A program made the position numbers and the translations under genes. 64,000 nucleotides of DNA from Candidatus Pristimantibacillus lignocellulolyticus (GTDB taxonomy: Bacteria > Bacillota > Bacilli > Paenibacillales > Paenibacillaceae): the NCBI GenBank assembly GCA_023639215.1, contig CP097899.1, positions 4,136,933-4,200,932 of the forward strand, read 5' to 3'. Shown in pieces: positions 51,969 to 62,445 of this stretch (within the stretch, counting starts at the first letter, position 1; every line of letters begins with the position of its first letter). The notes below the pieces were generated by a model. That model saw only the letters and a program-made list of their open reading frames with translations. It did not search any database and was not told the DNA's origin.

Positions 51969-52730
51969 TTAATTGAGTTGCGAAGCATCAAGCTCAATCA
52001 ATGCATGGCAATTCCTCGATGTTGTGCAGGTCGTAAGCATATAGTCTGGATCCAACTGGACCTGGTGCAATTTCCAGTTACTTTCCAATTCCCCCGATTC
52101 TACCACCGATTGTATACAGAAAACTTGATCATTCTCGCCGCTCCCTTTAAGTCCAGTTCCAACAGCGATAGGAAAATTGCTAACATTGAGAGCAGTTTTA
52201 ACAACACTGAACGAGTTCAACGGTATGGCCAATCCCTTGCCTAAAGCTTTGATGTAGCTTTCTTTGGCCGTCCAGATCATATTAAACATCCGATCGCGCT
52301 CATGTTCAGGGAGATTAATTAATGTTTCATATTCGGTGCTGGTGAACATAGACTGTGCCAGCTGCAGATCCGCCTTGACCATCTTCTCAATATCGATACC
52401 GATTGCCTCTGAGTGGAAAACTGCCACTGTCCATACACCAGAATGTGAGACATTAAATTGTACTTCATTGCCAAGTAAGATTGGCTTACCGTATTCGTTT
52501 TGAGTAAATATCATCTGATGAACTGGTAATTTGTATTTCTCGCGCAGTACATAATTCACTATCATGTTTCCAGAAAGTGATCGCCATTGATCCTCCCAAT
52601 GCCGAAAACGTGCTACCCGCATTGCTCGTGCAACTGGCACAAGCGCAGACCAGCGCTCAATTCTTTCAAGATTTACTTGAACCGAACAATTATCCATTCG
52701 CACAGCATAAATAGTTGGAACAGACATCAT
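51969..52730 (-). CDS. sfp: Sfp-type 4'-phosphopantetheinyl transferase
   Basis: NEYGKP, FNVSHSG, IGIDIE, WTAKESYIKALGKGL; 4-bp overlap with mbtH. Confidence 0.9.
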   Translation of the reverse strand: MMSVPTIYAVRMDNCSVQVNLERIERWSALVPVARAMRVARFRHWEDQWRSLSGNMIVNYVLREKYKLPVHQMIFTQNEYGKPILLGNEVQFNVSHSGVWTVAVFHSEAIGIDIEKMVKADLQLAQSMFTSTEYETLINLPEHERDRMFNMIWTAKESYIKALGKGLAIPLNSFSVVKTALNVSNFPIAVGTGLKGSGENDQVFCIQSVVESGELESNWKLHQVQLDPDYMLTTCTTSRNCHALIELDASQLN

Positions 52731-52921
52731 ACTTGTCGCAAGCTTAGCGGTGTCAAGTCACACCAGACTTCATTCACGAAAGTCAGGCATTCTGCTTTAG
52801 TACCACTCTTCCCAGCATTACTCCAGCCAGATGGATTATGAAGGTGCAATGGCCATAAAGCGTATTGCTCCTCTGCATTGACAACTACTTTATAGCTGTC
52901 ATCTAGAATTTTGTTCTCCAT
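52727..52921 (-). CDS. mbtH: MbtH-like protein
   Basis: VVVNAEEQYALWP.....PSGW.......K.ECL..V...W.D..PLSL; three conserved Trp. Confidence 0.92.
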   Translation of the reverse strand: MENKILDDSYKVVVNAEEQYALWPLHLHNPSGWSNAGKSGTKAECLTFVNEVWCDLTPLSLRQV

Positions 52922-52947
52922 TTAAAGTATCCTCCCTTATTCATTAA

Positions 52948-55900
52948 TTAGATCCCTGCACCAATTTGGCGATCTGCAAGTTGCTGTAATTGATCTTTAT
53001 TTCGAATAATCACGGCATCAGGCACAGCATCAGGTAAAATTGTCTCCATATAGCGCAATTGTCGATATTTCATACCGAGTAATCCCCAGATGAACAGGAT
53101 GACACCGATCGAAGTGATTAATAGCCCAATGCCCATCCCATCTCCAGTTCCGAATAGTCCTGTGTCCTTAGTTCCTGCTGGCAACGCGGAAGCAAGTGGA
53201 ACGAAAACAGACGCTACAAGTGGTCCTGCAAGAAGGAAACTAAGTGGACGCATGCTGAAAGCCATAACTTGATTCGTTGCCAATACTCGACCTTGTAATT
53301 CAAGTCCTACCTTCGTTTGAATTAATGCAAGCCAGTGCGTATTAATAAGTGCAAGTGCTAGACCAAAGCCGAATAATCCGATGGCTGCAGTCACAAGTGA
53401 AGGATAGATACCTGCAATTGCAATCGATGCACCAGTCAACATAACGAACCCGACCATCCCATCCGCTCTACGGTCAAATCCGCCCCATACTGACATAAGT
53501 ATCGAGCCGATTAATAGTCCTGCACCTTCGAAGGCAATTACAATACCAACTTTGTCAGCGGTCATGAATTGTAGAAGGAACGGTGTCGTTAGTACGTTAT
53601 ATAAGCTCATGAAGAAATTGACAACAATGAAAAACACGACCATTGCGATCAAGCTCTTCCTTTGCATAATATATTTCCAACCTCCAATGATTTCTCTGCT
53701 CATTGGTTCCTCGCGCTTTTTGAACATCAAGTTCGGGAATCGGATCAGCGAGAGAATGACAATTGACAGACTTAATAGTACGAGATCGATAATGACAATT
53801 CTTTGTAGCCCGATCAATACGACTAGAGCTCCTCCAAGTGCAGGCGCCATAATTCCGTTCAAGGACATAACGAGTTGTCCTAATCCGTTCGCGTGTCCCA
53901 AGTACCTCTTTGGTACGAGTTGCGCTGTTGCGGCTTGGTAGGCAGGCATCGTGAAAGCTCCAGCGATTGATCCTATACCTGCAGCTACGTAGATCGCCCA
54001 CAGTGATAATGCGTCCATATAGAACATAGTCGCGATGAAGATACACGAGCATAATGCTAATAACTGACCTACCAACATCACCTTTCGTCTATCATAGCGG
54101 TCCACAACTGCACCTGCGAGAGGTAGCAGCAACAATGTGGGAAGTATTGCATACAGCGATATCGTCGCATAATCTGAAATCGATCCGGAACGTTCGTAAA
54201 CCCATATTCCTAAGGCGAATCCGGTCAATGACGTACCTATTGTGGAAATAATCAAGCACAATGTAACTAATAAAAACGTTTTTATGCTGGGTTTAACGTC
54301 CTTCTGCAACTGCTTCCTTATTTTTACGTGCTCAGTGACTGATGTTGTCTGAGATTCGTTGTTCAAAGAAAAACGTTTTTTTTCTAATTCGTTATCATCA
54401 TCCCACTGACGAATCTGCTGTGATATAATTTTTACGACATGATCTGATTGATGTTTATGAAAATAATGGCCAGCCTGTTCAACGATATGCAATCTCACAT
54501 CATCACTGAAATCCTGCCACTCCAAGTAACGTTCCTCGTAGAACTCAGTCATTCGATCGGCACCGCCGACAATACAAGATACTGGAGCTTTCAGTTTTGG
54601 TTGCTCTGGTAGAGCGTACAAAGCTGTGTAATAATCCTCCGCTTCTCGTACATCATGCCGCAAGTTACGCAGCACGAATTTCTGCTCTTCCGGGGATATT
54701 TCGTCATCGAAACCACCAAAGGCACGGAGCATGTCGCGTGCGAATTTATCGGACGTCCATTTCTCCTGTGGGAATAATCTATGCCACCATTCCGTAAATC
54801 TGAATGGTAGTCTTGTTCCAGGGAAGGTGCCTGCCATAAAGACTCCACTTACCTCTACATTCGCTTCCTGTAGCAAAAGCGCGGTACGAAGTACCATTGC
54901 CCCGCCTAAGCAATGTCCATACAGATAAACTTCACCTTTAACTTTGTTAATGATTTCTTCTGCAATCCGAGCTGAGGTTTCCTCGAGCGACATTAGCAAT
55001 TGACCATCTCTACTGTAATCATGCCCGGGTAGTTCGACGGCAAACAAAGAATAGTTAGGTGGCAACCCTTTAGCCATCGGCTGGAATGTAATCGCGCTAC
55101 CCCCACCGTACGGTACGCATACTAATGTAATAGCTTTGCCTCCGATATTGGATGCCTTCTTAAATTCAATTAGTAAATCATCACTACGCGTGGCTCCTGA
55201 TGAGAGATGCTCTGCTAATTCACGAATTGTCGGATACTGAAAGAGATCCATCACGCTGAATGAATTGCCCATCTTACGTACAACTTTAATCGCCTTGAAC
55301 GAATCACCACCAAGATCAAAAAATTCGTCGGTGACTCCAACCTTATCTAGACCTAGTATCTCACCCCATACTGCAGCAATTTGATGCTCTTCTTTGGTCT
55401 CGGGTGGAATAAATCCGGCATCACCTGCTCGATTTTCGACACTAGGTGCAGGTAACTTAGTACGATCAAGCTTACCGTTTTCGTTAAGCGGTAGCCGTTC
55501 GATCTCGACGAAGGCCGAAGGTAACATATAGTCTGGTAAAATGTTTTTAATATGCTTTCTTATTGCACTTACATCGATCTTAGTTCCAAGCATATCTTGC
55601 TCTTGACTACCATGTGTCAAGTTGTGCTCCCGCACTAGATAGGCAATCAATCGTTTGTCTCCGGGTTCATCTTCACGTATTATTACGACCGCATCGCGTA
55701 TTCCTTCGAACTGCAGGAGGACTTGCTCTATTTCGCCTGTTTCGACACGATAACCTCGAATCTTGACCTGTTGATCCATCCGTCCAATAAATTGAATTGT
55801 TCCGTTTGGCAAATGGCGAACGAGATCACCTGTACGATACATTCTTGAGCCCGGTCGGACTGAAAATGGATTAGGTATAAATCGTTCTGCAGTTAGATCT

Positions 55901-58515
55901 GGCTTACCATAGTAGCCGCGTGTGACTGCGCTACCGCCGATATACAATTCGCCAATGGAACCAGCAGGAACCGGTTGAAGATAAGCGTTAAGCACATACG
56001 CAGGTGCGTTCGGTATAGGACGACCAAGCGGAAGAATCGCTTGATGATCGTTCTCTTTTGCATCAACAGGAACTTCATAAGCTAGCACGGAAACCGTCGT
56101 TTCTGTAGGGCCATAATGATTCTGGATTCTGCAACTAGGATGAAGTCGTCGAATGTCTGCAATTGTTCCCCAATGTGAGGCTTCACCTGCTAGAATTAAA
56201 CATTCGCGAGGTATGATAACGCTCGGATTAGATACGCCTAGAAGTAACTCCATATGACTTGGAACGATCTTCATGACGTCAATCGGATACAACTCGCAAT
56301 ATGCCGCGAAAGCATCGGGATCAGCAGCACGTTCATACGGGATGACATGCAGTGTTCCTCCTGTTGCAAATGCTCCCCAAATCATTGGCGTTCCGAGGTC
56401 GGCAGCAAGCGTGCTGACGATGGCGAAACTCAACTCTTGTTTTAACTTCATACGCTCCATTATGCCATCCAAATAATTGGCATAATTGCTATGCTCAACT
56501 GCTACGCCCTTTGGTTTGCCCGTTGATCCTGAGGTAAACAATACATACATTAGATCTTCCGGTTTCGAGACAACTTCTGGATTACTTGCATCTTCTCTAG
56601 CGATCGCATCCCAGTCCTTGTCGAGTGAAACGGTGCGTAACGATGAAGAATCCGTACTGTCGAATAGTGGCTGTTGATCAGTTATAGAGCTTTCGGTTAC
56701 GATAACCGATACTTCAGCTTCCTGAGCAATCAATCTTAATCTTTCTACTGGTAACTTAGGATCAAGTGGAACATAAGCGCCACCTGCCTTTAAGATGCCG
56801 AGCAAGCCAACGATAATATCGACTGAGCGCTCCATATAAAGACCTACTGTTTGATTAGGTATAACCTTTATTCCTCGCAAATAATGTGCTAGACGATTCG
56901 CCCTTTCATTCAGTTCCAGATAAGTCAGACTAACCCCTTCAGAGCATACGGCTAATGTCATAGGTGTAAGGATTGCTTGTCGCTCAACATTGAGGTGCGG
57001 AAATTGGAACTCCGCCATAGAAGTCTCGACAACATTCCAATCGACGAGAGTTTTTCTTAATTGTTCGCTCGAAAGTGATGCAATTTCATATAAGGGTAAT
57101 TTTGAATTGTTTAATATACGCTCTAAAATATTATTGTACTGGTCTGCCAATTGCTGAATGGTTGACTCGCGGAACAGGTCTACCCTGTACGTCAACGTAA
57201 CATCCATACCTAATTTTTGATTCTCGAATACTGTCATCGTCAGATCCAGCATGCCTCCACGTTTGCCATCGCCCACGAAAGGTACAATTTGGAGTTCAGG
57301 TAGATTAATCATAGACTGACCAATTCTCTCGAACAAAAACATCGTATCGAAGAAAAGTGAATGACCAATTACACGTTCCGGATTCATCTCTTCGACAAGC
57401 CGGTCGAACGGCAAATCCTGATTATCGTTTGCTTCGAGCACTGTGTCTCGGACTTTTGCAATAAAGTCGCTAAAGGTACCACCCATGTCGATTTCGGAAC
57501 GCAGCGCAACTGTGTTGGCAAAGAAACCAACTAGCTTCTCTATTTCCTGCTTACCTCGATTCGCCATAGGCGTCCCAATGACAATTTCTTGCTTGCCATT
57601 ATAGCTCGCTAGAAGTACTTTATAAGCAGCTAGTAAAAGGACGAACGAGGTGCAACCGAGCTGTTTACTCGTTTCACGGATACGCTGTGAGAATGAAGGA
57701 TCGAGAGTCAAGCTGTAGAAACCGGCTTTGCGTTCACTTTGAATAGCGGGGCGCGGATAATCTGTTGGAAGATCAAGTGTTGCTGGTGCTGGTGTCAGTT
57801 TCTTCTTCCAGTAATCGAGCTGATCTTCGTATTCTGATCCTGTCATCCATTGCCTCTGCCAAACGGCAAAGTCCGGATATTGAATCGGTAGTTCTGGTAG
57901 AGACAATGGCTCATCTAGCGTGATAGAGCGATAGATCGTGGCAAGTTCTACGTCGAACACTTCGGCTGACCATCCGTCATAGATTAAGTGATGTGTCATC
58001 CAGACTAGGATATGCATTTCCGAATCAAGACGGAAAAGCATCGCTTTCACAAGCGGACCATTCAGAAAATCATAAGGTGCCGTTGATTCTTTGTCGATGA
58101 GCTCATAAACTTTATTTTCATCTTTCAACTCAATTATAGGTAGGTCGATTATCATCTGAGGACGAATCATCTGCACGTAATCATCGTTCTCGTAAGCAAT
58201 GACAGCACGCATAATTTCATGGCGCTTAATTATCTCGTTCAATGTTCTATGCAGAGCTGGAATGTTAAGTTCACCAATCAGTTTATAGCCGTTAGCAAAG
58301 TTATATCTCGATGTTCCAGGCATATACTCTTCGAAAAACATAATTCGCTGCTGTGGAAACGATAATGGGAACTTGTTCTCACCAGCTGGCCTTTGCTGTT
58401 TCGGAATAATAGCGGATTCTGCAGCAGCTTTTGCCTTCTGCTGCCTAGCCTTCATCGCAAGGAGAGCTCGGCGTTCAGGTGACAATTGTTCGAGTCGGTC
58501 AATTGTTTTAGTCAT
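52948..58515 (-). CDS. NRPS C-A-PCP-TE fused to a C-terminal DHA3-type MFS exporter (1855 aa)
   Basis: HHLIYDG C domain (H175), TSGSTGKPKG and YGPTE A domain, LGGDS PCP (S1072), GHCLG TE (C1202), then about 430 aa multi-TM MFS with GAVVDRYDRRKV motif; one open frame in the ORF track. Confidence 0.9.
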   Translation of the reverse strand: MTKTIDRLEQLSPERRALLAMKARQQKAKAAAESAIIPKQQRPAGENKFPLSFPQQRIMFFEEYMPGTSRYNFANGYKLIGELNIPALHRTLNEIIKRHEIMRAVIAYENDDYVQMIRPQMIIDLPIIELKDENKVYELIDKESTAPYDFLNGPLVKAMLFRLDSEMHILVWMTHHLIYDGWSAEVFDVELATIYRSITLDEPLSLPELPIQYPDFAVWQRQWMTGSEYEDQLDYWKKKLTPAPATLDLPTDYPRPAIQSERKAGFYSLTLDPSFSQRIRETSKQLGCTSFVLLLAAYKVLLASYNGKQEIVIGTPMANRGKQEIEKLVGFFANTVALRSEIDMGGTFSDFIAKVRDTVLEANDNQDLPFDRLVEEMNPERVIGHSLFFDTMFLFERIGQSMINLPELQIVPFVGDGKRGGMLDLTMTVFENQKLGMDVTLTYRVDLFRESTIQQLADQYNNILERILNNSKLPLYEIASLSSEQLRKTLVDWNVVETSMAEFQFPHLNVERQAILTPMTLAVCSEGVSLTYLELNERANRLAHYLRGIKVIPNQTVGLYMERSVDIIVGLLGILKAGGAYVPLDPKLPVERLRLIAQEAEVSVIVTESSITDQQPLFDSTDSSSLRTVSLDKDWDAIAREDASNPEVVSKPEDLMYVLFTSGSTGKPKGVAVEHSNYANYLDGIMERMKLKQELSFAIVSTLAADLGTPMIWGAFATGGTLHVIPYERAADPDAFAAYCELYPIDVMKIVPSHMELLLGVSNPSVIIPRECLILAGEASHWGTIADIRRLHPSCRIQNHYGPTETTVSVLAYEVPVDAKENDHQAILPLGRPIPNAPAYVLNAYLQPVPAGSIGELYIGGSAVTRGYYGKPDLTAERFIPNPFSVRPGSRMYRTGDLVRHLPNGTIQFIGRMDQQVKIRGYRVETGEIEQVLLQFEGIRDAVVIIREDEPGDKRLIAYLVREHNLTHGSQEQDMLGTKIDVSAIRKHIKNILPDYMLPSAFVEIERLPLNENGKLDRTKLPAPSVENRAGDAGFIPPETKEEHQIAAVWGEILGLDKVGVTDEFFDLGGDSFKAIKVVRKMGNSFSVMDLFQYPTIRELAEHLSSGATRSDDLLIEFKKASNIGGKAITLVCVPYGGGSAITFQPMAKGLPPNYSLFAVELPGHDYSRDGQLLMSLEETSARIAEEIINKVKGEVYLYGHCLGGAMVLRTALLLQEANVEVSGVFMAGTFPGTRLPFRFTEWWHRLFPQEKWTSDKFARDMLRAFGGFDDEISPEEQKFVLRNLRHDVREAEDYYTALYALPEQPKLKAPVSCIVGGADRMTEFYEERYLEWQDFSDDVRLHIVEQAGHYFHKHQSDHVVKIISQQIRQWDDDNELEKKRFSLNNESQTTSVTEHVKIRKQLQKDVKPSIKTFLLVTLCLIISTIGTSLTGFALGIWVYERSGSISDYATISLYAILPTLLLLPLAGAVVDRYDRRKVMLVGQLLALCSCIFIATMFYMDALSLWAIYVAAGIGSIAGAFTMPAYQAATAQLVPKRYLGHANGLGQLVMSLNGIMAPALGGALVVLIGLQRIVIIDLVLLSLSIVILSLIRFPNLMFKKREEPMSREIIGGWKYIMQRKSLIAMVVFFIVVNFFMSLYNVLTTPFLLQFMTADKVGIVIAFEGAGLLIGSILMSVWGGFDRRADGMVGFVMLTGASIAIAGIYPSLVTAAIGLFGFGLALALINTHWLALIQTKVGLELQGRVLATNQVMAFSMRPLSFLLAGPLVASVFVPLASALPAGTKDTGLFGTGDGMGIGLLITSIGVILFIWGLLGMKYRQLRYMETILPDAVPDAVIIRNKDQLQQLADRQIGAGI

Positions 58516-59920
58516 AGAGCACCTCCGTCAAAGGCAATTGTTGATTGTTAAGTTGACGCTGTAAAAGCCTCTGCGCGAGCAAAGAACGCTTGTTGGAATT
58601 AAGTGCCTCATTGTTTACATCTAGACGATGATCCGCTAACGAGACTACGCTTTGTAAGAGCTGCTCCTGCTTTGCTGCCATATAATCTACACTCAATTGA
58701 TCCGATTCAATGGCGTTGCTTCTCCTACCAATGACCGATTCAATAGCTGTACATGCCATTGTCATCGTATCATGTTCTGCCAAGGCCTTAGCTAACTGAC
58801 GACAGCGCTCCTTCACCGCATTTGTCTGGATGGTTTTTATAGTATTAGCGATCAATGTTGGTTCCCACTGCATCGGCGGTAAATAATCGCCGATACCGAG
58901 TTGTTTAATCCGCCTTCCGTTATCTGGTCGATCCGTATCGGCTGCGAGCGCTAGCTGTGGTACCGCTGCAGTCATCGCTCCGGTAATTGTTCCAATCCCG
59001 CCATGGTGAATCACGCCGCTGACTAGTGGATAGACACTGGCAAGTGGCAGAATCTTGTACCAGCGAATATGATCTGGAAGCTCGCCTTGAATGAATTCTT
59101 CATGTCTTGTAACCAGAATCGTTCGCTGACCTGACAATTTGACACCTTCAATCGCAGCCTGGTAGAAGTTCGGTTTAATCATTTTGCCTGTCCCACCTGT
59201 AATCAAAAGCGGCTTCTCGCCTGACTGGATAAAATCTAGTAAATCGATTGGCAATGGCTCGTATTCGATCTCATCTGCGAGTGGGAAACCTACTGTTTCC
59301 ACCTTCAGCGCCCAATCTGGAGTTTCGACTGCTGCATCAAAACTCTCATGCCAGAAACCGATGTTTTTCTTCACAGCTCCCATCCACGATGTCCAATTCG
59401 ATACCGGAGTAAGTCCTAGATCGTTCCGGAAAGTATTAATACTTGATATTCCGAAGTCCAGTCCAAGTTCCTCCCAGATATGCAGCTGCGTTACATAGCT
59501 TGGTGCCAGTATTGCGGAGACGATAGGTACTTGCATAATTTCAGACACGATCATTGCTACATAACCGTCACGATCCCTACAAATGAGTACGGAATCTTCT
59601 TCTTGGCAAAGCTCTGTTATGATGTCATACTCGTGTTGGAATTTTTCCTTTGTATAATACTTGCGTTGGTAATCTTCATAGAGTTCAGGCTTATTCAGCG
59701 GATCCTCGATCATGGAAAGATCTTTCATGATCTCTGTATATTCCTCTGGTTTATCGATCCCACGAAATGCGATACCTGACTTCTCGGCAAGTTGTGAAAA
59801 CACACCGTGTGTCACCAGAGTTGCCTTATGTCCGCGGCGACGAAGTGCAGAAGCCAACCGTAGGAACGGGAGTACATCTCCGTTCGTCATATGCGTGCTA
59901 AGAACGAAATTTGCCAACAA
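58508..59920 (-). CDS. GT1 family glycosyltransferase with C-terminal extension
   Basis: GDVLPF...LRRRGH N-terminal motif, HHGGIGT...AAVPQL...DRPDNGRR nucleotide-sugar motif; 8-bp overlap with the NRPS start. Confidence 0.88.
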   Translation of the reverse strand: MLANFVLSTHMTNGDVLPFLRLASALRRRGHKATLVTHGVFSQLAEKSGIAFRGIDKPEEYTEIMKDLSMIEDPLNKPELYEDYQRKYYTKEKFQHEYDIITELCQEEDSVLICRDRDGYVAMIVSEIMQVPIVSAILAPSYVTQLHIWEELGLDFGISSINTFRNDLGLTPVSNWTSWMGAVKKNIGFWHESFDAAVETPDWALKVETVGFPLADEIEYEPLPIDLLDFIQSGEKPLLITGGTGKMIKPNFYQAAIEGVKLSGQRTILVTRHEEFIQGELPDHIRWYKILPLASVYPLVSGVIHHGGIGTITGAMTAAVPQLALAADTDRPDNGRRIKQLGIGDYLPPMQWEPTLIANTIKTIQTNAVKERCRQLAKALAEHDTMTMACTAIESVIGRRSNAIESDQLSVDYMAAKQEQLLQSVVSLADHRLDVNNEALNSNKRSLLAQRLLQRQLNNQQLPLTEVLYD

Positions 59921-59947
59921 CTTTCCCCTCCTTTCGTCTAATGATTG

Positions 59948-61813
59948 TCACTTCAGTAACGCCTCGATTTCTGCTTCTGATAGATGTTCCATTTCGCTCA
60001 ATAACGCTTCGAGTTCGGCATCGTCGGTGTCGGCAAGTAAATTCGTTTCTATGATCGCAGCAAGTGAGCGAATTGTCGTTCCTTGTGTAAGCATGTCTTT
60101 TAGAGATACTTTCACACCAAATAGATGTCCACAGCGGACAAGTATTTGAGTTGCTACGAGCGAATGACCGCCCAAATCAATAAAATTGTCATCAAGTCCG
60201 ATTTCATCAAAATTGAAAAATCCAGACCAGATCTGAGCAAGCTCTTTCTGAATGTAAGTCTGTGGTGGAACATATTCTTGACTGATCATGAGGCGTGACA
60301 CAGTTGGACTCGGTAATAGTTTCCGGTCTGTCTTGCCACTTGGGGTTAGTGGGAATGTCTCCATCTCAATAAAATAAGAAGGAATCATATAGTCGGGTAA
60401 ATGCTTCTGTAGATAATTTCTTAACTCGCTAATAGATGGAGAATATACAGGGTTAGGGATGAAATAAGTTGTGATGCGCTGGTCTCCGGGTTGATCTTCA
60501 CGAACGACAGTTACGACTTGATTGACGCCTGGATGTTGTTCAAGTACATTGCTAATCTCACCTAACTCGATACGGAAGCCCCGTACCTTTACTTGATCAT
60601 CGTTTCGACCTAAACATTCAAGATTCCCGTCACTGAGCCAGCGTCCAAGATCTCCGGTATGGTACATACGTGATCCCGGTTCTTTGCTATACAGATCGGG
60701 TACGAATCGCTCGGCAGTCAGATCCGGTCTGCCGTGATAGCCACGTGCAAGTCCGATACCACTGATAAAGAGTTCTCCGATTTCACCTTGACTGACCTGT
60801 TCATATCGGTCGTTTAGGACGTACACTTCGTCATCAGAAATAGCCTTACCAATCGGAATTATAGATCGTTCAAGGTTACGGTCGCTAGTCCAACTCGTTA
60901 CAAATACCGCTGCCTCTGTTGGGCCATACAGATTGTGGAGTTGTCCAGACATTGTGCTGCAGAAGCGTTCGTTCAGCGCTGCAGATAAAGGCTCCCCACA
61001 TAAGAAAACATGCTTCAGAAGAGGGAGATCTTCGGATAGGTCTGAGCTTAAAAAGGTCTGGAGCATCGTTGGCACGAACTGTACAAATGTAATTGACTCA
61101 CGTTTCATAACATCCCACAAATATGAGGTATCAAGATGCCCTTGGGGCTTAGCCATAATGAGACTTGCACCACACATATGAGGCCAGAAAAATTCCCATA
61201 CCGAAACGTCAAAACTATAAGGAGATTTCTGAAGAAGTCTATCGTTTTGCGTCATTAGGAAGGTAGATTGTAGCCAGAGAACTCTGTTACGTATGGCAGC
61301 ATGTGTATTCATTGCGCCTTTAGGTTTGCCGGTTGATCCTGAGGTATAGAACATGTAAGCTAGATTGTTTTCATCTAAAGTGATATTAAGATTTCCTTGC
61401 TCTTCTCGATATCCTTCCGATGATTCTACTTCATCTAAAATCAGTACATCGGCGTCAAACTCATCCAGTAGTTCTGAAAATTGACGCTGCGTAATTACAA
61501 GTCTTACGTCGCTATCATTAATCATATAAGCAAGTCGATCCTTCGGATAATCCGGATCTAACGGTACGTACGCACCCCCTGCCTTCAATACAGCGTAAAG
61601 TGCAACAACCATTTCAATCGAACGCTCCATAGATATTCCTACTAGAATGTCTGGTCCGACACGAAGCGACCTTAACCGATACGCTAGTAAATTTGCGCGA
61701 CGGTTCAACTCGTCGTAAGTTACGGACTTCCCCTCGAATCTAACGGCTTCTTCATTGGGTGTACGTTCTGTTTGTTGCTCAAACAACTGGTGAATCAAAT
61801 TTTTCACCTGCAT
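59948..61813 (-). CDS. standalone NRPS loading module A-PCP
   Basis: YTSGSTGKPKG, YGPTE, YHTGDLGRW, SGKTDR A10 Lys, LGGHS PCP (S551), acidic C-terminal tail. Confidence 0.92.
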   Translation of the reverse strand: MQVKNLIHQLFEQQTERTPNEEAVRFEGKSVTYDELNRRANLLAYRLRSLRVGPDILVGISMERSIEMVVALYAVLKAGGAYVPLDPDYPKDRLAYMINDSDVRLVITQRQFSELLDEFDADVLILDEVESSEGYREEQGNLNITLDENNLAYMFYTSGSTGKPKGAMNTHAAIRNRVLWLQSTFLMTQNDRLLQKSPYSFDVSVWEFFWPHMCGASLIMAKPQGHLDTSYLWDVMKRESITFVQFVPTMLQTFLSSDLSEDLPLLKHVFLCGEPLSAALNERFCSTMSGQLHNLYGPTEAAVFVTSWTSDRNLERSIIPIGKAISDDEVYVLNDRYEQVSQGEIGELFISGIGLARGYHGRPDLTAERFVPDLYSKEPGSRMYHTGDLGRWLSDGNLECLGRNDDQVKVRGFRIELGEISNVLEQHPGVNQVVTVVREDQPGDQRITTYFIPNPVYSPSISELRNYLQKHLPDYMIPSYFIEMETFPLTPSGKTDRKLLPSPTVSRLMISQEYVPPQTYIQKELAQIWSGFFNFDEIGLDDNFIDLGGHSLVATQILVRCGHLFGVKVSLKDMLTQGTTIRSLAAIIETNLLADTDDAELEALLSEMEHLSEAEIEALLK

Positions 61814-62445
61814 TCAATCACTCCTTTTCTTGTGTAGTAAATAGTAGAAATTACATATATTGTATAAATCAAGCTGCATCATCATTATAGTGAGCAGCTA
61901 ATCAAAGTGTCAATATTTATGTTAAATTGAAAAAAAAGTATTCAATGAGTCCAACAAAAAAGATTCTTCTCGTTACCAAGTACATAAAAAGTAGCCGCAT
62001 ACTTTCATAATGTTGTTTCTAGTGATATCTAATTCTTCTTTTATCGGTTTTATCTGTTCTGCTGAATTACATCCAGACAAAATAACAAAATCTATAACAA
62101 GTTAAGACGATAAAAACGTTTTTATTAAATCTTTTCTCATAAGTGTTCCTCACTTTATTAAGTTTAGATTTTTTAAACTATTCGGTAAATTGCATGAATA
62201 TCCTTCACGAGATGACATTTCACTATCCATGGCATCTATCAACTAGTGATATCTATCAATACTTGATATTAGTTGAAAATGATAGAAATAGGTATTCCGC
62301 TTAGCTCATGCAAGGATGCATGTACATACAATACAAATGAATAGATAAGTCGCATAAAGATGGAGGATGAGAACGATGAGCTATGTTTAATAGAAAGATT
62401 AATAAATAGAGAGAGAAAAAATCTATGCGAATAGAGGTTAAGTTA

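Follow-up and report, generated by a model that had tools for sequence, protein, structure and literature searches.

A docking-type helix near the C-terminus of a glycosyltransferase suggests glycosylation on the assembly line of a nonribosomal peptide synthetase

We studied a small biosynthetic operon in a window of 64,000 nucleotides (the whole stretch of DNA that was analysed) from Candidatus Pristimantibacillus lignocellulolyticus (assembly GCA_023639215.1, contig CP097899.1, positions 4,136,933 to 4,200,932). All of its genes lie on the minus strand, in the following order: a loading module consisting of an adenylation (A) domain and a peptidyl carrier protein (PCP), a glycosyltransferase (GT) of family GT1, a nonribosomal peptide synthetase (NRPS) with condensation (C), A, PCP and thioesterase (TE) domains fused to a major facilitator superfamily (MFS) transporter, an MbtH-like open reading frame (ORF) and a phosphopantetheinyl transferase (PPTase). 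Near its C-terminus the GT carries a basic helix, here called the tag, which resembles the N-terminus of the NRPS, and the A-PCP ends in an acidic tail. Our reading of the compared sequences, to which we give a probability of roughly 0.6, is that the GT would dock via its tag on the acidic tail and glycosylate the starter while it is bound as a thioester, and that the C domain would then dock on the same tail. Since several phyla and two unrelated families of sugar transferases retain the tag, glycosylation probably happens on the assembly line, with the building block still tethered. The features that carry the argument are as follows (window coordinates):

59948..61813, minus strand: A-PCP loading module, 621 amino acids (aa) (P0002); Pfam AMP-binding, AMP-binding_C and PP-binding
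59951..60031, minus strand: putative acidic C-terminal docking domain (CDD) of the A-PCP, residues 595-621, DTDDAELEALLSEMEHLSEAEIEALLK; from translation and a profile match, predicted helix-turn-helix
58508..59920, minus strand: GT gene, 470 aa, GT1 family
58739..59920, minus strand: catalytic part of the GT, residues 1-394, GT-B fold; Pfam Glyco_transf_28 and EryCIII-like_C, AlphaFold predicted local distance difference test (pLDDT) >90
58604..58738, minus strand: extra helix of the GT (residues 406-433) and hypervariable linker; from the AlphaFold model and column conservation
58544..58603, minus strand: basic docking-type helix of the GT (tag), residues 440-459, LNSNKRSLLAQRLLQRQLNN; from a hidden Markov model (HMM), conservation and a predicted helix at 442-459
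58508..58543, minus strand: last 11 residues and stop codon of the GT, poorly conserved and disordered; the stop overlaps the NRPS start (ATGACTAA)
58435..58503, minus strand: predicted N-terminal docking helix of the NRPS, residues 5-27, IDRLEQLSPERRALLAMKARQQK; from translation, motif scan and residue spacing
52948..58515, minus strand: NRPS C-A-PCP-TE fused to an MFS transporter, 1855 aa (P0003); Pfam Condensation, AMP-binding, PP-binding, Thioesterase, MFS_1 and MFS_3

The GT belongs to family GT1. An N-terminal GT28-like domain (PF03033, 33.9 bits, cut-off 26.2) is followed by a C-terminal EryCIII-like domain (PF06722, 63.9 bits, cut-off 31.7), and the motifs HHGGxGT and DRPDN are invariant in the GT alignment. 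The Pfam domains stop near residue 380-395, and about 75 residues extend past the GT-B fold. An AlphaFold2 model built on 33 homologues (overall pLDDT 87.6) places the end of the fold at residue ~394, followed by a helix (406-433), a low-confidence break (434-441) and the motif as a second helix (442-459, pLDDT ~65), after which the chain is disordered. An earlier, sequence-only reading of the window had described such an extension beyond the fold, which the Pfam limits and the model bear out. It had also spoken of a tail of 45 aa; the extension and its basic helix stand, but the helix lies ~15 residues short of the C-terminus, with the extra helix and a disordered linker between it and the fold. 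The C-terminus reads ...NNEALNSNKRSLLAQRLLQRQLNNQQLPLTEVLYD (also written ...ALNSNKRSLLAQRLLQRQLNNQQLPLTEVLYD), and the stretch ALNSNKRSLLAQRLLQRQ corresponds to residues 439-456 (58553-58606). The three motifs that reading had picked out, on the GT, the NRPS and the A-PCP, are all present in the minus-strand translations at their positions.

The tag is much better conserved than its surroundings. Across 31 tail-bearing homologues (33-83% identity) the mean column conservation was 0.73 for the fold, 0.27 for the linker, 0.55 for the tag and 0.25 for the end. The key residues of the tag are L440, K444, R445, L448, L452 and R455; all of these except L440 are almost invariant in residue class in the same 31 homologues, and the helix follows the consensus L-S-x-E-K-R-A-L-L-A-x-x-L-x-x-R. 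It is kept down to ~30% GT identity, with a hypervariable linker in front of it. Docking elements and short linear motifs (SLiMs) typically show this pattern, in which a short conserved helix ends a hypervariable tether. Conservation of the tail in homologous clusters was also one of the points on which the sequence-only reading had said it could fail, and the tail is conserved.

The NRPS begins with MTKTIDRLEQLSPERRALLAMKARQQ, in which the key residues of the docking helix are L8, L11, L19 and K22. A BLASTP comparison of the GT tail with the NRPS N-terminus gave no alignment, and the likeness is seen at the level of profiles and motifs only. We therefore built an HMM from the N-termini of C-domain proteins, trained on the motif of 29 such proteins from related loci and including no GT sequence. 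The GT tail scores 13.7 bits with this model; when GT tails were shuffled with their composition preserved, a single one of 1860 shuffles reached 8 bits. When all 6399 ORFs of the genome were scanned, the N-terminus of the NRPS came out best (16.2 bits), the C-terminus of a second GT came second and the tail of the window GT third. The related loci come from a scan with one genome per species, which yielded 79 loci annotated by BLAST against the window's own domains. Among their 3840 ORFs, every match of at least 8 bits was the N-terminus of a C protein, a junction between GT and C domain, or the C-terminus of a GT1 or GT4 enzyme. The column profile of the GT tails, L-S-[AS]-E-K-R-A-L-L-A-x-R-L-K-Q-R, is nearly identical to that of the C N-termini, L-S-P-E-K-R-A-L-L-A-L-K-L-K-K-K. 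The similarity between the basic helices of GT and NRPS that the sequence-only reading had pointed out is thus real at the motif level and goes beyond chance. Within a cluster the match is closer: a GT tag aligned to its own C tag reached a mean BLOSUM score of 25.8 compared to 18.3 for the C tags of other clusters (permutation p = 0.002, n = 16). This fits a partner shared by both tags, though lineage-specific composition may contribute. A recent duplication of the 5' end of the NRPS gene into the 3' end of the GT gene was also considered and rejected, as the two coding stretches show no notable DNA similarity by eye.

For the acidic tail we searched the PDB with a profile of 21 such tails. 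The best match was the CDD of PaxB (PDB 6TRP) with an E-value of 8.4e-4; phmmer searches of the PDB with single tails gave nothing useful, and the profile alone reached 6TRP. The PaxB CDD adopts the same type 2 fold as CurG and binds the single basic helix of PaxC in a three-helix (3HBa) complex, in which L3304, L3307, L3312 and L3316 are key residues and salt bridges join E3303 to K19 and D3296 to R23 (PMC11221535). The residues M608, L611, I616, L620, E607 and E600, which are the key residues of the A-PCP tail, align with L3304, L3307, L3312, L3316, E3303 and D3296 of PaxB. On the partner side, L8, L11, L19 and K22 of the NRPS correspond to I18, L21, L29 and K32 of CurH, and L440, L448, R451 and R455 of the tag match the spacing of PaxC L8, L16, K19 and R23. 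As a modelling device we translated through the stop codon and used AlphaFold2 on an artificial construct that joins the carrier with its CDD, a 10-residue linker and the GT (P0244). In this pseudo-fusion the acidic tail is predicted as two helices comprising A-PCP residues 598-609 and 613-621 plus artificial linker (chain 84-95 and 99-111), with a pLDDT of ~78-80.

These observations place the pair among the type 2/3HBa docking domains represented by CurG-CurH (PDB 4MYY) and PaxB-PaxC (PDB 6TRP). As in that class, the A-PCP is predicted to end in an acidic helix-turn-helix whose two short helices follow immediately on the carrier domain, at the extreme C-terminus. It is related in sequence to a solved CDD, with hydrophobic residues spaced i, i+3, i+8, i+12 and acidic residues for the salt bridges (PMC11221535). 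In the partner helix positions i and i+8 are aliphatic and position i+11 is basic, as seen in both the NRPS (L11, L19, K22) and the GT (L440, L448, R451). By its sequence the pair of A-PCP and NRPS is an ordinary member of the class, and the acidic tail, which the sequence-only reading had taken for a C-terminal docking element, is indeed a predicted type 2/3HBa CDD. The unusual point is a docking helix near the C-terminus of a tailoring enzyme. Known partners of such CDDs are the N-termini of the next synthase subunit, and the NRPS conforms to this. The GT helix (residues 440-459 of 470, C-terminal to the fold) does not, and since it is not N-terminal we class the tag as a variant rather than a canonical member. 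A further difference is that one acidic tail would here serve two or three alternative partners. The topology of the GT helix is unproblematic: the helix is tethered by its C-terminal end in the NRPS (~20 flexible residues), by its N-terminal end in the GT and by both ends in the fusions described below. A type 3 system of the SLiM/beta-hairpin kind (enacyloxin Bamb_5915/5917; TubC) is similar in that a short terminal element on the carrier recruits a separate catalytic protein. Those systems use a beta-strand, which slots into a beta-hairpin domain of ~60-70 aa, whereas here there are ~45 residues before the C domain, with no match to TubC_N or any other Pfam family, and the GT model shows the motif region as a helix.

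We then compared the genomic context across the 79 loci. Relatives of the GT1 enzyme inside NRPS clusters occur in Paenibacillus, Clostridia, Chloroflexota, Acidobacteriota, Actinomycetota and Pseudomonadota. They adjoin a carrier protein, which is an A-T protein (T being the carrier domain), an FkbH-T protein (TIGR01686 above cut-off) or a lone T, and which ends in the acidic consensus ..ELxxLLxELExLSDEEIxALL... The tails of the GTs themselves are 50-86 aa long and close with the basic motif, and where two GTs stand in tandem both are usually tagged. Counted per locus (77 loci), a tagged GT together with an acid-tailed carrier was found in 31, a tagged GT without such a carrier in none, an untagged GT with an acid-tailed carrier in 7 and neither in 39. 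In locus L027 the A-T protein has no acidic tail and both GTs are without tags. A maximum-likelihood tree separates 33 GTs from outside NRPS clusters, all without a tail, from 63 NRPS-associated GTs (both 100/100). Every tagged or fused form falls into the NRPS-associated clade, in which some losses are also seen, e.g. in Micromonosporaceae.

The GT is fused to the N-terminus of a C domain in four loci (L033, L034, L045 and L083). Each fusion lies downstream of an acid-tailed carrier protein, and its junction holds exactly one copy of the motif, e.g. ...LTPEQRALLAMKVAGKKK...FPLSFAQ; in L045 a single chain reads GT4-GT1-[motif]-C-A-T. When a catalytic domain sits between carrier n and condensation domain n+1, its substrate is normally the intermediate on carrier n, as for epimerisation domains. 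Because the fusions put the GT at this in-line tailoring position, they are the strongest argument in our comparison that the GT would act on the carrier-bound unit.

Tags are also found on glycosyltransferases of a second family. About 5-14 kb before window position 1 the genome holds another cluster (G000:C1:4123344-4132070, or L088:845-9571, minus strand), to which the second-best motif match of the genome scan belongs, 6 kb outside the window. Its adjoining genes are:

L088, minus strand: A-T protein, 631 aa, ending in ...MELELLLAELENEEELV, with an acidic tail shorter than that of the window
L088, minus strand: GT4-family glycosyltransferase, 438 aa, ending in ...LSPEKRQQLLAVLQERR, with the tag variant EKRQQLL
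L088, minus strand: C-A-T-TE-MFS synthetase, 1837 aa, beginning ...LPAEKRQQLLDKIKDK, next to the GT4 gene

In sequence the GT4 enzyme bears no detectable resemblance to the GT1 enzyme of the window. Among its best 120 homologues (39-88% identity) about 100 end in a tag by eye and 38 score at least 8 bits; homologues of up to 410 aa have no tag, and some GT4 homologues are fused to C domains. Pyrinomonadaceae loci combine both families in the order T, tagged GT1, tagged GT4, C. The tags differ ([KR]R[AS]LLA in the window, EKRQQLL in L088), and the two docking systems in this one cell may be orthogonal.

A few relatives deserve separate mention. FkbH-T loaders (glycerate) with the same acidic tail occur in Actinomycetota and Vulcanimicrobiota (L040:8013-9995 and L083:7950-10007, also L046, L048 and L062), and Micromonosporaceae GTs beside FkbH-T loaders have lost the tag. 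Four Clostridium loci (L028, L031, L035 and L037) have acidic tails shortened to the first helix (...SEEELESMLNEIE), and in the same loci the basic motifs of GT and C domain come without the L-S-P-E cap (QKKALLKAILEKKK), which amounts to a coarse co-variation of both partners. Finally, L051:7769-11281 encodes a protein of 1170 aa with two GT1 domains split by an insert of ~380 aa that contains CNLQCPLC (CxxxCxxC, radical-SAM-like). This protein bears a basic tag at its end and adjoins A-T and C-A-TE-MFS genes.

The proposed sequence of events would be as follows. Once the A domain has loaded the PCP, the GT would dock on the acidic tail by its tag and glycosylate the tethered starter at a hydroxyl or at the free alpha-amine. 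Docking would keep the active site of the GT within reach of the phosphopantetheine arm, so that the starter is modified as a thioester; this starter would be an amino acid here and FkbH-derived glycerate, as acceptor, in some relatives. The affinities of such docking pairs are low to mid micromolar (PMC11221535), and the GT would be expected to dissociate accordingly. The N-terminal helix of the NRPS would then dock on the same tail, the C domain would condense the glycosylated donor with a second residue, predicted to be Asp-like, and the TE would release the product for export by the fused MFS transporter. What we infer in this scheme is the binding of tag to tail, the competition with the C domain, the carrier-tethered starter as acceptor and the order of the steps. 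The sequence-only reading had suggested glycosylation on the assembly line, and the comparative evidence agrees with that idea and supports it.

Several of our results weigh against this scheme or add nothing to it. The tag helix gained no confidence in the pseudo-fusion, with a pLDDT of 54-58 compared to ~65 in the GT alone, a comparison of pLDDT values only and from a mostly unpaired alignment. When the PDB was searched with the profile of the basic motif, the docking helix of CurH was found only at an E-value of 6.6 and the other matches were mostly spurious. The basic residue at i+11 is present in only about half of the homologous tags, and R451 is not conserved among GT tails. The 7 loci that pair an acid-tailed carrier with untagged GTs, e.g. 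a Micromonosporaceae clade and L029, indicate that the tag is not obligatory for this clade of GTs. Moreover, the co-occurrence counts were not corrected for phylogeny, and their Fisher p-values overstate independence: the tree points to a single old gain each in GT1 and GT4, with later losses. For GT1 the history of the tag is better read as one old gain with long maintenance.

The tag could also have other functions. It might be a mere scaffold that docks the GT to the megasynthetase, with the sugar transferred to the dipeptide bound to the second PCP or to the released product, and docking would then serve co-localisation with the membrane-anchored exporter. All the docking evidence fits this explanation equally well, and the fusion of the NRPS to an MFS exporter makes a membrane-proximal metabolon plausible. 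Docking could be competitive, or a ternary bundle could form in which the GT helix and the N-terminal helix of the NRPS pair as in a type 2 coiled coil; a coiled coil of two N-terminal helices, contacted by the C-terminal domains, is found in canonical type 2 complexes (PMC11221535). We nevertheless consider a scaffold unlikely, since the gene order and the GT-[motif]-C architecture put the GT between carrier and C domain in the manner of in-line domains that act on the upstream carrier, the tagged GTs of relatives adjoin minimal lone carriers or FkbH-T loaders, and the fused forms hold one motif rather than two. It is quite improbable that the tag has a different partner, so that the GT would self-associate or pair with the N-terminal helix of the NRPS or its C domain. 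Leucine-rich helices can form coiled coils and tandem GTs are both tagged, but charge complementarity favours the acidic tail, the locus without an acidic tail (L027) also lacks the tags, and lone GTs with one tag are common.

Targeting of the membrane was considered as well: the helix is amphipathic with many Arg/Lys and Leu residues, membrane binding is common among peripheral GT-B enzymes, and the downstream NRPS is membrane-embedded. The helix might thus anchor the GT on the anionic membrane beside the MFS-fused synthetase, with a convergent likeness to the NRPS. This is very improbable because the motif agrees position by position with the N-termini of C domains, L-S-P-E cap included, because it forms an internal linker element in the GT-C fusions, and because the tag also occurs in clusters with NRPSs that have no MFS domain (L039, L043 and L049) and, as the counts above illustrate, never without an acid-tailed carrier. 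The tag also lacks the aromatic residues typical of membrane-inserting helices. Finally, the existence of fused forms and the overlap of the GT stop codon with the NRPS start could point to a non-functional relic, left over from the fission of an ancestral GT-C fusion or from a duplicated gene start. We regard this as scarcely credible: the motif is conserved over at least five phyla, in contrast to the hypervariable linker and end on either side of it, it occurs independently on GT4 enzymes, and the two coding stretches show no similarity by inspection of the DNA.

Docking of the GT on the acidic tail before condensation, our preferred reading, has partial precedents. In the pactamycin pathway PtmJ glycosylates intermediates bound to an acyl carrier protein (ACP), as reported by Eida et al. 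2019 (cited in PMC7435583), and for the myxoglucamides an early glycosylation integral to the assembly line was deduced from genetics (PMC13638107). As we propose here for the window GT, a nucleotide-sugar GT of the PtmJ/PtmI system acts on a small acyl unit tethered to a carrier, before further assembly; PtmJ differs in that it acts on a discrete ACP of a polyketide synthase (PKS) pathway and not in an NRPS. In the window a comparable carrier-dependent function is suggested by gene order, by the GT-C fusions and by FkbH-T or lone T neighbours. Trans-acting tailoring proteins are likewise directed to carrier-bound substrates by dedicated elements of the assembly line in the case of X-domains, which recruit P450s in glycopeptide NRPSs, and of MbtH-like partners. 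Those elements are a whole degenerate C-type domain or an interface of the A domain rather than a portable helix on the tailoring enzyme. We know of no docking tag reported for PtmJ, and an incomplete search of the literature found no description of docking tags on glycosyltransferases.

Splitting and recombining NRPS and PKS assembly lines relies mainly on docking domains, and to our knowledge these have so far been known as links between consecutive synthase subunits. If our reading is correct, helix 440-459 would be a transplantable tag that directs glycosylation, and perhaps other chemistry, to a chosen step of an engineered assembly line. The window would also add a bioinformatically recognisable case of carrier-bound glycosylation in NRPS biosynthesis, for which there are very few precedents. 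A GT ending in LSxEKRxLLxxL beside a carrier protein ending in LSDEEIxxLL can serve as a signature for genome mining, and it marks a large family of so far uncharacterised clusters (A-T or FkbH-T, GT, C-A-T-TE-MFS) whose products are probably small glycosylated peptides. More tentatively, and with some doubt, we suggest that type 2 docking helices are portable address tags on stand-alone GT1 and GT4 enzymes. One to three such enzymes would share the tail of the loading carrier in turn with the C domain, in a 'glyco-initiation' found across Bacillota, Chloroflexota, Acidobacteriota, Actinomycetota and Pseudomonadota. The starter would have to be glycosylated before the first condensation, and the pairs of tag and tail would differ between paralogous clusters and so stay orthogonal.

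The remaining features of the operon are given below:

61884..61913, minus strand: promoter upstream of the A-PCP gene, sigma-70-type consensus TTGACA-18-TATAAT (12/12), a pattern match only
52727..52921, minus strand: MbtH-like protein, 64 aa, ...EEQYALWPLHL...; ORF, with the family assigned by eye
51969..52730, minus strand: Sfp-type 4'-phosphopantetheinyl transferase; Pfam ACPS and AASDHPPT_N

The cluster is probably a horizontally acquired island, because its G+C content of 44-45% (52000-62000) differs from the 34-38% of the flanks and because the GT turned up in no more than 5 of the 25 genomes of the same genus that were searched, the window's own genome included. The likely start codon of the GT is the second TTG, at 59917, with a ribosome-binding site (RBS) AGGAGG upstream, and homologues begin with M/V-ANFV. 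The stop codon of the A-PCP (TGA) and the start of the GT share a frame and are 27 nt apart with the RBS between them (59921-59950). A single read-through would fuse both proteins; we used the pairing for modelling and do not claim read-through as a natural event. Manual alignment to GrsA gave the code DVWQFCLVFK for the A domain of the loading module (60900-61215), a Ser-like scaffold with an altered pocket, and the Asp-like code DLPKIAHVSK for that of the second module (56080-56405). The TE motif of the NRPS reads GHCLG, with a cysteine where serine is usual. The C-terminal third of the NRPS (52948-54300) is a complete MFS transporter (MFS_1/MFS_3), and the same C-A-T-TE-MFS architecture was found repeatedly in many related loci across phyla.

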